Position numbers and translations under genes: made by a program
In this document: in pieces, positions 1,908 to 57,101 of the stretch
Layout: the number at the start of each line of letters is the position of its first letter
How positions within the stretch are numbered: position 1 is the stretch's first letter
The notes under the pieces: model-generated
Seen by the model: the letters and a program-made list of their open reading frames with translations, nothing else
Told to the model about the DNA's origin: nothing
The model's database searches: none
Source: Eledone cirrhosa
Lineage: Eukaryota
Assembly (NCBI GenBank): GCA_964016885.1
Contig: OZ024751.1
Span: 38,936,001-39,000,000 of the forward strand
DNA length: 64,000 nucleotides
Direction of reading: 5' to 3'

Positions 1908-2181
1908 CAAGTAAGAATATTTTCGAAACAGCGAGTTGATTTGAAATTATTAGAAATGTAAGCTATCACCGTATTTTGACTAAAGAAATTAAAGAAATTA
2001 TTTAGCCTGATAGTGGGGTTAAGAACCCTCGGGGAAATGGAAAAAGATAAGTATTGACGTACATGTACATCAATACTCATCTTTTTCCATTTCCCCGAGG
2101 GTTCTTAACCCCACTATCAGGCTAAATAATTTCTTTAATTTCTTTAGTCAAAATACGGCGATAGCTAACATTTCTAATAAT
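1908..2181 (-). mobile_element. Fold-back palindromic element in (TA)n
   Basis: Zero-loop palindrome 1946-2181 with 118-bp arms, about 4 mismatches and centre GTACA|TGTAC. Unpaired tail 1908-1945. TA arrays on both sides. Confidence 0.75.
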
Positions 2182-4482
2182 AATAATATATATATATATA
2201 TATATATATATATATATATATATATATATACATACATGTGTGTGTGTGAGTGTATATTTATATATCATATATATATTCCGTTAATGTAGCCTTCTATAAC
2301 CCAGCTTTGCTTCCTATACATTCTTCGGCACTTGAAGCAAACAACATACAGACACACACAACCACATACACACACACTGATGTATAGCTAGAGAAAAGTA
2401 AATAAAATTATATATATATATATATTTATGTATGTATATATATGGGAATATTTTTGAATAACTATGTATATAAATGTAGAAAAAGCTAACCAAATGCTCA
2501 CCATATATACACACACACACGCAAAAAGACATACTCACACACACACACACATGTATTCCAACTTCATTGTAATGATAGCAAGAAGAAGCACCGCTGCTGC
2601 CATTAAGCTAGTCACAATCTCTACTATATACATCAAAGGAAATCTCGCCGATCAGGCATGTTCATTCGGCGTGAGATGTTGTTACTAACAAAATAGAGCT
2701 AATTTCTTTAGTCTGAGTGTTTCCCTTTGGATCTCTCTCTCTCTCTTTCTATCTATCTCTCCCTCTCTCTCTCCCCCTCTCTATCTCTCTCTCTCTCGCG
2801 CTATCTCTCTCTCTCTCTCTTTCTCTCTCACACACACTCTCTCTCTATCTCTCTCTCTTTCACTCTTTCTCTCTCTCACTCACATCTCTGGACAAGCAGA
2901 CGATATCAATGGCGGCGAAGCGTGTAGTAAATGACACAGATTTTTACGACTATTTCCGGACATGCTGGTCGATATGTAACTCTCGGGGCGATTCCATCAT
3001 GCCATTGCTTATCTCTCAGACACGCATTTGGCATTTTATATACTTTTGCTAAGCTACATTTTTACAACACATTGAAAACATGTATCGGCGTTGTTTGAAT
3101 ATGAAATGGAAATATGGCTGATCATTTAATTGCATATAGTTCTTTCTATGCTTCTTTCTTCTTGATCGGAATGGGCATTCGGTCAGTCTGTAATAATTTC
3201 TAAAGTTCTCTTATTTTCATCGTCGGATTTATGGACGCTTGACCTGCCAGAAATGTATAATGAACATTAGTAGAAAAAGGAATATTGGTTTTCGTGGTAA
3301 AGAAAATATACTCTTTGAACTGCCCGTCAACACACACAACCCGTGATGGTGAAGCTGGCAGCGATGGTTGTTTTAATGGTGGTGGTTGTGCTGATAGAGT
3401 ATAAACATATTTGTATAGTAACTAACCATATTTATTTCATCAACTACATTCCTGTCTGAGAATGTATCCAAGATGTTGGACTATATTCTTTTACTCTTTT
3501 GCTGCTTTCAGTCACTTGACAAAGGCCATGTTGGGGCAGTGTAATCTTTTAGTTTACCACCTTGACACTAGATCGGATACTTCTATGATTGTTGACATAT
3601 TTGTATCCATATACACATATATAAGTGTATATATATATACATATATATATATATAAATATAAATATATGTATATATATATATATATATATATATATATAT
3701 ATATATATATATATATATATATATATATATATATATATATATATATATATATATATATATATCCACATACACACATATATGTACATATACATGTTTGACA
3801 GAGAAAGACGGGCCACGTATTTAGATAATTAATCGATGAGACACACTACTGGAAATTCTCCGCCCTAACCTGAAGATTTAATAGCGAACTAAACGTATAT
3901 CAATATATATATATATATATATATATATATATATATATATATATATATATATATATATATATATATATATATAAACTAATAATTGCGTATACACATATCT
4001 ACACACATACATGCATACCTATATACATATACACATATATATACATATAACTATTTTACGTTTAGGTGTATAGACAATATCTTTTAATCTAAAATATTTT
4101 TTTATGTTTCAATGTTTGTTTTAACATTAATACCTTCCATTTAATGGCTCCATTTTCAACAGAGAATTATTAAGGTGATTCTGAACCTTTTACACTTCCA
4201 ATGTTTTACCTAGTGGGAGAAGATAAGCAGACGACATTTACTGTACAGAAGTCTCTTTCAATATACAACTATTTGCAACTATTTGCAAAAGCAGACGCCA
4301 TGTTTTCTTTATCCACTTAACTCATGTTACACTTCGGAAGAGAGTCGTCAAATTCTTATTGACAAACATTCAATCAACCTGGCGTGTTGTAAAGTGGTTG
4401 AAAATAAGCCATTTCCGGTCGGGACTGTAATCAGAGCAGTCAGAATACACACACTAACACACGCTCTCTTTCTCTCACTCTC

Positions 4483-4650
4483 TCACACACTCACACACGC
4501 ACACACACACACACACACACACACACACACACACACACACACACACACACACACACACACACACACACACACACACACACACACACACACACACACACAC
4601 ACACACACACACACACACACACACACACATACACGCACATACACACACAC
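4483..4650. repeat. (CA)n microsatellite
   Basis: Long near-pure CA run. Confidence 0.95.
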
Positions 4651-7460
4651 TCGTTCTATCTCTTTGTCACACTCACACACACATTAACATTTAGACTGAA
4701 GTCATATATTTAAGACCTAAAGGAATATTTACATCGTGAACAGTTAATATGAAACAAAATATCAAAATAAATATTTTTAATACAAACACAAACACTTGAA
4801 ATAACAGTCTTGCTGAAGACAGATATCATAAATTGATAGTTGATATACGAAAACAACTTCTATTAGAAAATGAAAAAGAATATGTATATATATTATTATT
4901 ACAATATATATGTATATATATACAATCTTTTCCTGAGTCCTGTATTTTCGTTGCTCTAGTGATGCGGCTGGACTGCTGATCGCTATATTTGATTTGCTAA
5001 GCTGTCTAAACGTATTGTTATAACTCTGGGGTACTTTACCCCATCCGAGTGCTAAAGCTACAGACCGAATTTGCATTCGTTAGCTTGGCCGCGAACTAAA
5101 GCTTCGTTAATGCTGTACTAGAATGTATATATATATATATATATATATATATATATATATATATATATATAAATGATGCACGCGTTGTTGAAAGCTGGTT
5201 GGACCTAGTACATAGTAATACATATTTATTAAGACCAATCTTATTGTTGTTGCACCGAACTTAATTGTCGGACGATCCTGGAAATACACATGAGAAAATC
5301 CCGAGGAACAGCAATCCCCTGCCCTTATTAAAGAAACATATATATATATATATATATATATATATATATATATATATATATAATTAAGTTAAAAATGTAC
5401 ATCCACATATGTATACTGAAATACTAGTATGCAATGAATACACACACGTATACATATGTAGATGTACCGAGTTTTTCACTGGTCACTTTACTGTGAGTGT
5501 CCAGCTATTCTGTATGTAAACACACAGACAAACCGGTTTTTAGAGTCATACTGGTTTTTGAGGAAACACCTTTCCTCTATTCTCCAGAAAGCCAGACAAG
5601 GAATATTGAACTATATATATATATATATATATATATATATATATATATATATATATATATATATATATATAGAGAGAGAGAGAGAGAGAGAGAGAGAGAG
5701 AGAGAGAGAGAGAGAGAGAGGTTAGAAAAGAGAAAGGAAAAAGAGAAAGGAGAATGAGTGACGCATCATATCCGAGGTTAGTCCTTCATTATGAAGAGTA
5801 CACTTAGAAGAAGGAGGAGGTGTATGAGTGTATGAAGTAATAAATTTGAAAGTTCGAAAAAAATACCACTTTTCCATTAAACATCACGTATAGTATGCCC
5901 ATACCGGTAGTATTCGTTGAATATTATTGCAGTACGAGAAATACATATAAAATATACAGAACTCCTGTGTAGGCCTCCTCCCATCTCTCAATATAGCGTA
6001 TACGACAAAAGTAGTTTTTTTTTACAGCAAAATGGTTGCTTTTCTTAAGATTTTCGTGAAGTAGAGACCTTGAACCTCCGATTCTAGAATCACATGAGTG
6101 TGTTTAGACTTTCTTATTTGTGCTCCTGAAAAGGGAAAGTTTTGCCTTCTGCTACAACCAAAATTCCCATGATAAAACCTATGTCATATTGGCACTCCTG
6201 CGTCTATATTCAGTATATTCAGGGTTAGGAGCCAAAGGCAAGATAAAGTATTACTCAAAATATATAATCGATAAAAAGTTCTCTATGTGATAATAGAATC
6301 TTGCATATCAACCAATGAAGTAACGAAATCGAAACAAAACAAAAAACAAACAAAAAAAAAACAAGATTCGTGTTCCCTGGGTTTAGTTTTAAAAAGTTCT
6401 TCCAAGTAATAGCGAAACTTTAAAATACAATTTACATACACCTATTATTGCTAAAGGGAGAAGGAAAATTCTTTAAATTAATATTTGCTATATAGCGTCT
6501 ATATATGTATGTTACAACACCCTAGGGAATTTATCCCAAAAATAATTAAAAAATAAACTGCCAAAAAAATATTTGAAAAAAAATAACCTTTGCTACTAGA
6601 TGTACCATAATTACCCAGTAAGTGAAAAATTGGAATCAATACATAAAGAGCCAAAAAGTTATTTTTAATGCCATATCAACATTGGTATTCCTTCAAGCAA
6701 GTTATTAAACCGTGAACAATACTCACAGACACTTAAATAGAAAGCTTCAGGCGAAAGATAGCAACGAGAGAGAAATTAGTCGCCATTTAAAGAATGAGCA
6801 AATTTCAATAATGAAAGTGTCTGGAACCATTATGTCTTCATAACTCAAATGAAACAAAAAGTTTAAATTGTGTTGAATATTACACAATAAATATTGATTT
6901 CTTTGTTAAAGCATATGATCAGATTTGTAAGGAGAGGACAAGCGATGGAGTGAATTGGTTTTCTAAGACTAGGACTATTGAAAGAATGAATGGATGTGCT
7001 AAGGATAGGATGTGCGATACATTGAAATGATTTGTTAAAGTTAATGAGTCAGGGATCAAGTACTGAGCCGAGTTTGAAAACGAATAGGAGAGCTGTAACA
7101 TTATATATTACTTGCAGAAGCGTTAGCAATAGTCGATGGACTCAGGGAGAATACATTATTTAGGTATTCTCTAAAATGATATACGTATGAACATTCTAGA
7201 ATCTTGCGTGAAAATAACTACGAGAATCTGCAATGCTTTAACCGTTGAAAATACTTTTTATCCATTCACGATCTTATGGAAACCGAATTATCCCTTTCTG
7301 TCATCACAAATCATGCAAACAACACACCAAACTACAAGTAATATTTTATTAAGGAGAAGGCTTTGTTAGTTGCCAACTGGTAAAATATTGACAAACATAG
7401 ATAAGCTATAGTCGGAAAACTAAGACAGAAGGACATATGAAATAATTGCAAATACTTTAA

Positions 7461-56203: not shown

Positions 56204-56796
56204 AATAGAGGGATGGAGTAATAATTATTTTCTACAATTATGCATATTCTTTTAATACCAATCAATCTGTATACTATCTTTTAAGTCACACAAACATACG
56301 TACGTATATATATTTATATACAAAAACACACAAAGACATCTAACACACACACACACACACACACACACACACACACACACACACACACACACACACACAC
56401 ACACACACACACACACACACACACACACACATATACATACACATACACATACACATACGCACACACACACACACACACACACACACACATACATATATAT
56501 ATATATATATATATATATATATATATATATATATATATATATATATATATATATATGTTATGTAATTTAGAAAGAAGAGCAAAGGAAAAAAGAGTGCTCT
56601 ATGTATAGAACAAAGCTGTCTGACATCGCTATCTGACGACCAATCCAGACGTATATTTATATTGTTTGGGATCCAGAAACCTTTGGTAATGAAGTAGTTA
56701 TATTTTGTGTTGTTCACTTTCTAATTTTATATATATATATAAATATATGCGTCTGTGTATATATATTTTGATATTTCGCCATAAATTTCTCATTCT

Positions 56797-56834
56797 AGTT
56801 TCTGATGAAAGACTAGCATCCGAAAATTAAGACT
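56797..56834 (+). ncRNA. Degenerate minimal hammerhead motif
   Basis: AGTTT-CTGATGA-AAGACTAGCATCC-GAAA-AT-TA^AGACT. Core and stem I present, stem II poorly paired. Related decayed copies at ~15075-15100 and ~1542-1570. Confidence 0.5.
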
Positions 56835-57004
56835 TTTCCTACTTTACCAAGCGTGAAACTTGTACTTCTTCATTGTACTGTGTATTTAGCTATGTTACTT
56901 CTTTTATCTTTTCCACACACACAAACACATACAGACAGACACACACACATATATATATATATACATATATATGCATATATATATATATATATATATATAT
57001 ATAT

Positions 57005-57101
57005 AACAAAGGAATTGTGGTAAGGAACCAAATGGACCATAACGCAGAAATAGCTGTCGAAATGGCTTGAGCTCTGCCGTCGGGGTCATACGTTTTCCTA
57101 C
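57005..57101 (-). mobile_element. Hairpin-tail family A, internally deleted copy
   Basis: Tail end (AACAAAGGAATTGTGGTAAGGAACC...) is joined directly to the distal arm (...GTCGAAATGGCTTGAGCTCTGCCGTCGGGGTC); one arm is lost. (TA)n flanks. Confidence 0.8.

Follow-up and report, generated by a model that had tools for sequence, protein, structure and literature searches.

Eight short palindromes lie between (TA)n arrays in a 64-kb stretch of the Eledone cirrhosa genome (contig OZ024751.1 of assembly GCA_964016885.1, positions 38,936,001 to 39,000,000; hereafter the window), which raises the question of what inserts there and how one insertion comes to consist of two inverted arms. The initial annotation had proposed truncated or non-autonomous insertions from several (TA)n-targeting families of Penelope-like elements (PLEs), which share a hammerhead ribozyme (HHR) and leave fold-back palindromes. 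The PLE origin was borne out, as six of the eight families recognized extend into PLE open reading frames (ORFs). The fold-back origin is made unlikely by pairs with one tail, by tail-less arms that are often the longer ones, and by arms that do not overlap. The palindromes are best explained as short two-armed PLE insertions from five Hydra-type families, one Neptune-type family and two protein-less passengers, dual-primed in (TA)n, and a probability of roughly 75% is assigned to this reading.

Two-armed insertions between TA arrays

The window belongs to a 3.0-Gb assembly, and microsatellites mask 14% of it. After masking, all eight palindromes were recovered by self-BLAST, with the spans 1946-2181 (self-match 97%), 23166-23287 (95%), 26256-26380 (86%), 26599-26774 (84%), 28615-28724 (96%), 32622-32734 (86%), 41369-41688 (97%) and 47327-47574 (65%, with an indel inside). 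All six claimed intact HHR cores were found by a pairing scan, at +26389, +27841, +41590, -41467, -35119 and -20045.

The PLE-type loci of the window fall into eight families, designated A to H, and cover 3,395 bp in total. Family A includes the locus at 1908, B those at 23096, 28612, 32620, 57005 and 38937, C those at 26253, 26827 and 27833, D that at 26595, E those at 47339 and 45171, F that at 41367, G that at 19996, and H that at 35042. The proposal of several separate families thus stands, but the palindromes at 23096, 28612 and 32620 are 80-90% alike and represent one family, so the eight palindromes correspond to six families. The described order of inverted copy, forward copy and tail fits most of them; in those at 1908 and 23096 the tail lies at the left end, with the tailed arm reading on the minus strand. 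The locus at 19996 does carry an HHR, as claimed, and also has a second arm, which consists of tail only and shares no overlap with the first (by eye). The individual loci are as follows.

1907..2181: family A, two-armed; minus-strand arm 1907-2065 with a 39-nt tail, plus-strand tail-less arm 2062-2181
19945..20191, minus strand: family G (Hydra-type); tail-less arm 19945-20159 with HHR core 20045, joined to a plus-strand tail-only piece at about 20158-20191
23096..23287: family B (Hydra-type), two-armed with a left-hand tail; arms beginning within stem II of a U3-A8 HHR
26256..26560, plus strand: family C (Hydra-type); short inverted arm 26256-26317 ending just before the HHR, forward arm with HHR 26389 and tail
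26599..26805: family D (Neptune-type), two-armed; about 30 nt of the ~40-nt tail, HHR not found
26827..27293, minus strand: further copy of family C, absent from the initial annotation; tail 26827-26913 joined to an upstream part
27678..27942, plus strand: family C, lone arm without a tail, containing HHR core 27841; a ~190-bp SINE-like repeat (SINE, short interspersed element) comes next, at 27952-28134
28615..28804: family B, two-armed; tail on the right
32622..32813: family B, two-armed; tail on the right, spacer reversed relative to the insert at 28615
34972..35428, minus strand: family H; part (457 nt) of a non-coding retrozyme unit of 485 bp, HHR core 35119
38937..39039, minus strand: diverged fragment of family B
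41369..41777: family F (Hydra-type); tail-less inverted arm 41369-41522, forward arm 41522-41777 with an 87-nt tail, mirrored HHR cores -41467 and +41590; the forward arm begins at the 5' hotspot of the family
45171..45240, minus strand: family E, tail-only piece
47327..47656: family E (Hydra-type, HHR undetected), two-armed; 87-nt tail on the right
57006..57100: family B; tail-only inverted arm joined to a tail-less forward arm, without overlap

Exact family motifs of 22-29 nt were counted genome-wide: 9,139 for F, 18,463 for C, 14,435 for B, 2,043 for A, 504 for D, 25,145 for E, 8,020 for G and 948 for H. They sum to about 79,000, and the reversed motif gave 0 matches for each of the eight families. 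The counts represent matches rather than copies, since two-armed inserts score twice and diverged copies are missed. The matches are often minus-plus pairs 0.1-5 kb apart. The tails, which had been called unique, recur across the genome, and this answers whether they are single-copy. The families thus leave hairpin-forming DNA at high density, 3.4 kb of the 64-kb window.

The palindromes are not assembly artefacts, because paired arms differ by substitutions and because raw Illumina reads from two other samples contain the same structures. The strand-switch joint is present at the same centre as in the insert at 1908 (19 reads with 5 starts in one sample, 11 reads with 7 starts in the other), and both 3' ends of family F are joined to TA. 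The tandem joint of family A is also found in such reads. Chimeras within a library are possible for single reads, yet the joint positions in the reads match the assembly.

Ends, tails and pairing of arms

The statistics on ends, tails and pairs are derived from the first 30 genome matches per family, which are the first matches on one contig. In families A to G, 24-30 of these 30 end at one of two fixed 3' sites, and TA is found within 8 nt of the 3' end for 23-28 of 30 seeds per family. Family H ends at +7 in 21 of 41 cases and at +113 to +118 in 12 of 41. Beyond several of the ends, the element continues with 2-7 nt that match (TA)n.

Head-to-head arrangements account for 14/19 inserts in F, 20/23 in B, 17/24 in A, 15/24 in G, 11/24 in E, 10/26 in D, 9/28 in C and 7/23 in H. 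From F, C, B, D, E and G, 79 unique head-to-head inserts were collected; 4 ran off the locus and 18 stopped short of the 3' end, which leaves 57 scorable. Exactly one tail is present in each of these 57 pairs, and family A pairs have one tail in 12 of 12 scorable cases. The 5' ends of the two arms are independent of each other. The tail-less arm is longer in 23 of the 57 pairs, the tailed arm in 17, and 17 are equal, while the arms of six pairs do not overlap.

The two arms nevertheless match in their variants. The same core variant was found on both arms in 26 of 26 head-to-head pairs of family B, against 0.34 expected per pair (hand count among the first 100 listed matches), so it is likely that both arms originate from one source RNA or locus. 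Arm identity is clearly higher within than between loci only in G (96.5 vs 89.6) and A (97.8 vs 94.1), and the arms of F have a median identity of 99.4%.

Junctions between arms show an overlap of at least 3 nt in 25/77 pairs, compared with 17/150 simulated blunt joins, and inserts longer than 5 nt in 23/77 pairs, compared with 4/150. This enrichment for microhomology and insertions suggests that two cDNAs were joined by end joining. The 5' ends cluster at -169 in F, -220 in G, about -58 in B, about -67 in E and about -118 in A, relative to the tail-less end, and consequently short palindromes of similar size recur. Left in thousands of short copies, this genomic pattern is in keeping with priming at two sites and on both strands and argues against simple fold-back.

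Two loci contain chimeric arms: retrozyme H joined to the 3' end of family E (L287), and family A joined to the 3' end of family B (L368). They suggest template switching between families within one reaction.

Reverse transcriptase genes linked to the families

By motifs and domains, six of the eight families are linked to PLE reverse transcriptase (RT) genes, five of Hydra type (F, C, G, B and E) and one of Neptune type (D). The most complete arrangement is that of family F at L041, which reads (TA)n, an 881-bp inverted 3' copy, an ORF of 821 codons, a 1.1-kb 3' untranslated region (UTR), the HHR, an 87-nt tail and (TA)n. The predicted structure of its protein (predicted local distance difference test score, pLDDT, 75) has telomerase RTs as its four best structural matches. 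One of its 25 protein homologues is named, and this one is from Argonauta. No RNA record is listed for the stretch of family F. The frame of family B at L348 is open for 710 codons. These two largely open Hydra-type ORFs, together with their matching RNA ends, offer material for an in vitro test.

The ORFs of C (L147/L148), E (L231/L228/L225), G (L296/L298) and B (L348) were recognized with tblastn and by motifs, and they share the motifs of the family F ORF. Hydra-clade marks are RW, DKT, the CxCx5C linker, CxxC and CxH, with no CCHH; the third residue of RWK varies (T, R or K). The initial annotation saw little similarity between the families, but pieces of the C, G, B and E ORFs share 30-57% identity with the ORF of family F, and the F-C and F-G alignments of 3' ends exceed 200 of 200 shuffles. 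Pfam was blank on the Hydra-type ORFs, the endonuclease (EN) of which is assigned by motifs, and a PDB sequence search with their alignment was also blank.

The partner ORF of family D has Pfam matches to RVT_1 and GIY-YIG (L420/L401). By eye it includes the RT, a Cx4CxxC linker and a GIY-YIG domain with the CCHH pattern, and L420 connects such an ORF to the 3' end of D. The 3' UTR is very long and microsatellite-rich. Selenocysteine was considered for this family and rejected, as the TGA that recurs in almost all of 150 EN matches is simply the regular stop codon. A first look gave 21,831 candidates for the Neptune-type endonuclease, several with open frames of 796 codons, and this family is probably very large and recent.

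The Hydra-type reference copies are 3257-4149 bp long, while a length below 3 kb is a tendency of the clade and not a strict criterion. Tails are 77-101 nt in the Hydra-type families and about 40 nt in D and A. Inverted 5'-adjacent copies were found in L041 and L044, and partial tandems (pseudo-long terminal repeats, pLTRs) in L043, L231 and L296.

A motif of ~20 nt, which could form a small hairpin, is common to F, E and G just after the upstream tail (L041:1318-1345, L231:690-715 and L296:1065-1090), and the tails of F, C, G, B and E have a short paired motif in common by eye. Both are candidate RT-binding signals. RNAalifold found no consensus pair for a shared hairpin in six tails, and the single folds are weak. 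Downstream of a Neptune-type ORF in L418 (G000:C3:92126000-92134000), a non-coding tandem unit of ~580 bp has (TA)n at its end and is a possible further passenger family.

Origin of the two arms

According to the relevant parts of Frangieh et al. 2024 (PMC11167929), PAc, a Poseidon element of Anolis, encodes a protein that in vitro cuts both strands and extends them, starting at two sites that flank the tail, and HHR cleavage is not needed. By analogy with this enzyme, cutting of both strands and dual priming are likely here too. The PLE endonuclease would cut both strands of the (TA)n array, and reverse transcription would be primed from both DNA ends, with one start on the RNA at its tail end and the other at its tail-less site. 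RNA from a single source locus would serve for both arms, and microhomology-type end repair would then link the two cDNAs head to head. The truncation hotspot of each family may reflect a fixed 5' end of the RNA or a structural stall, and families H and A would be mobilised in trans. The analogy has its limits: PAc was studied in vitro, belongs to another clade and initiates without homology to the target in the published account (PMC11167929), whereas the ends described above are followed by nucleotides that match (TA)n, and each pair has one tail.

It is unlikely that the arms originate by fold-back, in which a single cDNA begun at the tail end would fold onto itself and serve as template for the second arm. 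Near-identical arms in young inserts, as in F, and the matched variants of family B would be natural products of such a process, and the centres are often at self-complementary words of 4-6 nt. Fold-back, however, predicts that the tailed arm is always longer, and the tail-less arm is longer in 23 of the 40 unequal pairs. The six pairs without shared sequence, a kind to which the window loci at 19996 and 57005 also belong, do not fit either. A tail on the shorter arm and non-overlapping arms cannot be yielded by one folded-back cDNA but can be yielded by two primings, and fold-back is tenable only if hairpin opening and flipping are added.

Still less probable are two independent insertions into one TA array, fused later by deletion or recombination and homogenised by conversion. 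Families do pile up in the same arrays, and tail-to-tail neighbours with TA between them occur. Head-to-head pairs, however, are the majority in F, B, A and G, and independent insertions would give neither one tail per pair in 57 of 57 cases nor matched variants kilobases apart.

The chance that the HHR-less palindromes are miniature inverted-repeat transposable elements (MITEs), other DNA transposons or assembly fold-back artefacts is very small: short TA-flanked inverted repeats do resemble MITEs, but in place of fixed terminal inverted repeats and a constant interior, the arms meet at variable centres and the tail is on only one end, D and E extend into RT ORFs, and the joints are present in raw reads of other samples.

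Several points weigh against the two-armed, dual-primed insertion of PLEs. The samples were drawn from the first matches on one contig, and the reference of family C fits its subfamilies poorly. No partner ORF was found for H or A. Arm identity within and between loci hardly differs in B (97.4 vs 97.2) and is reversed in D (91.6 vs 94.4). In tandem full-length copies the upstream repeats begin further 5' than the hotspots, at about -414 in F and -442 in G, which means that a hotspot does not simply mark where the element starts. The one-tail rule has exceptions among long loci picked by hand, with two tails in L045, L149 and L233 and none in L048.

The initial annotation also suggested a coupling of the insertions to TA-array growth, which the array lengths do not support. 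In the window, a family match is touched by 18 of 173 arrays, with a median of 24 nt against 22 nt for the rest. At 54 inserts, the TA on both sides sums to a mean of 58 nt, compared with 32 and 45 nt in length-biased backgrounds, and this is explicable by target-size bias and the two-sided filter.

Hammerhead ribozymes

The HHR scan combined motif and pairing, was run on family references and arms together with shuffles, and replaced Rfam. An Rfam scan of the window, the check that had been suggested, contained no family HHR among the best 150 of 249 rows, and it fails as a check because it was blank even on the clearest HHR, the positive control. Folds with at least nine paired bases were found in the references of F, C, G, B and H, a level that 0 of 60 shuffles reached for each. 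Type I folds are present in 22/22 arms of F, 26/28 of C, 19/26 of G and 20/23 of H, and the long arms of B have a variant U3-A8 or C3/A8 HHR in 23/29. No HHR was detected in E (0/11 arms), D (0/11 long arms) or A (0/28 arms).

The HHR is accordingly not, as had been assumed, a common feature of the palindromes: those at 1908, 26595 and 47339 belong to the three families without a detectable one. A whole HHR is contained in the palindromes at 26253 and 41367, but those of family B include only the 3' half of the U3-A8 HHR. Among 100 listed cores of family B (hand count), position 8 is A in all, position 3 is U in 64 and C in 36, and position 7 varies as expected. Short copies of this family begin inside stem II; 1,897 matches were counted upstream and 14,435 at 84 nt downstream (different motifs).

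As judged from its sequence, family E is a Hydra-type family without a detectable HHR, the commonest of the eight by motif count, and an exception to the universality of the HHR in Hydra. The arms copy straight through uncut HHR sites; the seeds of F, G, B and H are at or before the cut site, so that cut templates would be under-sampled. Given such arms and three families without an HHR, the ribozyme is likely to be dispensable for insertion.

Protein-less families

Family H consists of non-coding units of 485 bp in tandem, each with a single type I HHR, in arrays of up to 10+2 units head to head, and by this organization it is classified as a retrozyme. The tandem unit of family A is 270 bp long and contains a tRNA fold; neither an HHR nor an ORF was found in it. 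Both arms of the insert at 1908 stop 118 nt before the tail-less end, within the 3' acceptor strand of the tRNA fold, and the part of the unit missing from the window is the tRNA fold itself; a motif from the tRNA part has 1,181 matches. The fold scores 30.6-48.1 bits with the Rfam tRNA model in 5 matches (gathering score 29) and is also found by ARAGORN at a relaxed threshold. Family A has no significant match to 15 autonomous loci or to the 3' ends of the seven other families, a screen that leaves aside other PLE families of the genome. Its 39-nt tail is similar in length to the tail of D, but not in sequence. Classification of family A as a non-LTR (long terminal repeat) retrozyme was rejected, since such a unit carries an HHR and none was found in its 28 arms.

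tRNA-derived SINEs have a tRNA-derived head and a poly-A or LINE-like tail (LINE, long interspersed element). Family A resembles them in its tRNA-shaped head and in copies that start at it, and differs in the absence of a poly-A or LINE-like tail, in its tandem units, in the two fixed ends in (TA)n and in its head-to-head arms, the last two being hallmarks of PLEs. Of the tRNA-seeded arms, 8/24 have their start between -4 and +6 relative to the first base of the tRNA, where about 1 would be expected if starts were even over 270 positions, and this cluster suggests an RNA polymerase III (Pol III) start or an RNase P cut. Tentatively, family A may be a SINE of PLEs, in which a tRNA-derived promoter or processing signal would replace the HHR and a PLE enzyme would copy the RNA into (TA)n by two-site, two-strand priming.

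It is also quite possible, if short of an even chance, that a tandem or circular read-through RNA simply carries the tRNA fold along as passive cargo. Five consecutive T residues follow the fold at a distance of ~10 nt, and many copies extend upstream across complete units. The structure of minimum energy is a long stem and not a cloverleaf (z -1.8), and in one subfamily the acceptor stem is weaker by eye. Passive cargo does not account for the excess of arms that start at the tRNA 5' end, nor for the promoter-box regions conserved across 16 aligned copies, of which only the A-box part is unbiased because the B-box part is within the search seed. If family A is a SINE of PLEs, the SINE concept would extend to a third retroelement class. 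Taken together with the HHR-less Hydra family, the most abundant of all, it would mean that PLE enzymes have their own class of tRNA-headed passengers and that the ribozyme is optional for them.

Comparison with known systems

The families are real and mostly of a known kind, namely new Hydra, Neptune and retrozyme members. The clade, (TA)n targeting, inversions, tails, mirrored HHRs and the U3-A8 variant are already published. The initial annotation knew of no description of these families; at the level of the clade there is one, as PMC8557442 reports (TA)n-targeting PLEs of the Hydra clade, one family of which, Hydra-1_Obim, is from Octopus. Six short family words had no match in the available part of the supplement of that paper. 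New here are a quantified footprint of priming on both strands, a Hydra family that lacks a detectable HHR, and a passenger with a tRNA fold.

The account of the Hydra clade in PMC8557442 gives (TA)n targets, inverted copies, one-sided tails and an HHR called universal. The present Hydra-type families agree with it in the single ORF with a C-terminal endonuclease, RW and DKT, the CxCx5C linker, CxxC and CxH near the EN end, the lack of CCHH, (TA)n targets and 5' inverted copies, and F, C and G also in the type I HHR near the 3' end. They differ in length (~3.3-4.1 kb, not <3 kb), in tails (77-101 nt, not 30-40), and in the U3-A8 core of family B and the lack of a detectable HHR in family E, in contrast to a canonical HHR in all. 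The HHR listed there for Hydra-1_oBim matches none of the present HHRs by eye. Family D and its partner are similar to the Neptune PLEs of PMC8557442 in the RT, the Cx4CxxC linker, GIY-YIG with CCHH, the ~40-nt tail and the inverted copies, and unlike them in the absence of an HHR from 11/11 long arms and in the very long, microsatellite-rich 3' UTR.

Metazoan non-LTR retrozymes, for which dependence on PLEs is proposed, form circles of ~170-400 nt according to the parts of PMC7229834 and bioRxiv 10.64898/2026.07.22.740005 that treat them. Family H shares their non-coding tandem units with one type I HHR per unit, while its unit is 485 bp, it has the two fixed ends and head-to-head joints in (TA)n of PLE style, and no matching PLE pLTR was found. 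The PLE hammerheads of Cervera and de la Pena 2014 (PMC4209133) are alike in their short palindromic helix III and in HHR pairs 100-700 bp apart on opposite strands. The U3-A8 variant is known from a Schistosoma PLE (PMC4209133). The mirrored pairs are remarked on there, and the passages concerned give no explanation. How PLEs build inverted, tailed insertions is presented as an open question in PMC8557442 and PMC11167929. A paper on Octopus vulgaris repeats reports 31 recently active PLE families, and the word 'hammerhead' was not found in the portion of its text available. Titles and abstracts outside subscription journals and Repbase contained no description of two-strand priming in PLEs, of the one-tail-per-pair rule or of a tRNA-headed PLE passenger. 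Annotation tools will miss such insertions or call them MITEs, as illustrated by Pfam on the Hydra-type ORFs and Rfam on the HHRs.

Other repeats in the window

A ~190-bp SINE-like interspersed repeat occurs in at least 11 copies (80-97% alike) and interrupts PLE copies (27952; L230). Its copies are located as follows.

8206-8394, 8995-9177, 12937-13069, 15620-15816, 18186-18374 and 27952-28138
32095-32290, 36932-37006, 54136-54307, 55028-55245 and 57619-57942

A second tRNA-like SINE fragment is present at 35430-35560. Next to it, 35570-35659 is the TA-flanked end of a further family, also adjoining TA in L149 and L420, and it is possibly a ninth PLE-type family. An imperfect inverted repeat (68%) at 7794-8121, with arms that are tRNA-like by eye, adjoins a 35-bp tandem array at 7461-7792. 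Between TA runs at 41036-41235 lies a ~200-bp MITE-like element with terminal inverted repeats of 13-14 nt (by eye).

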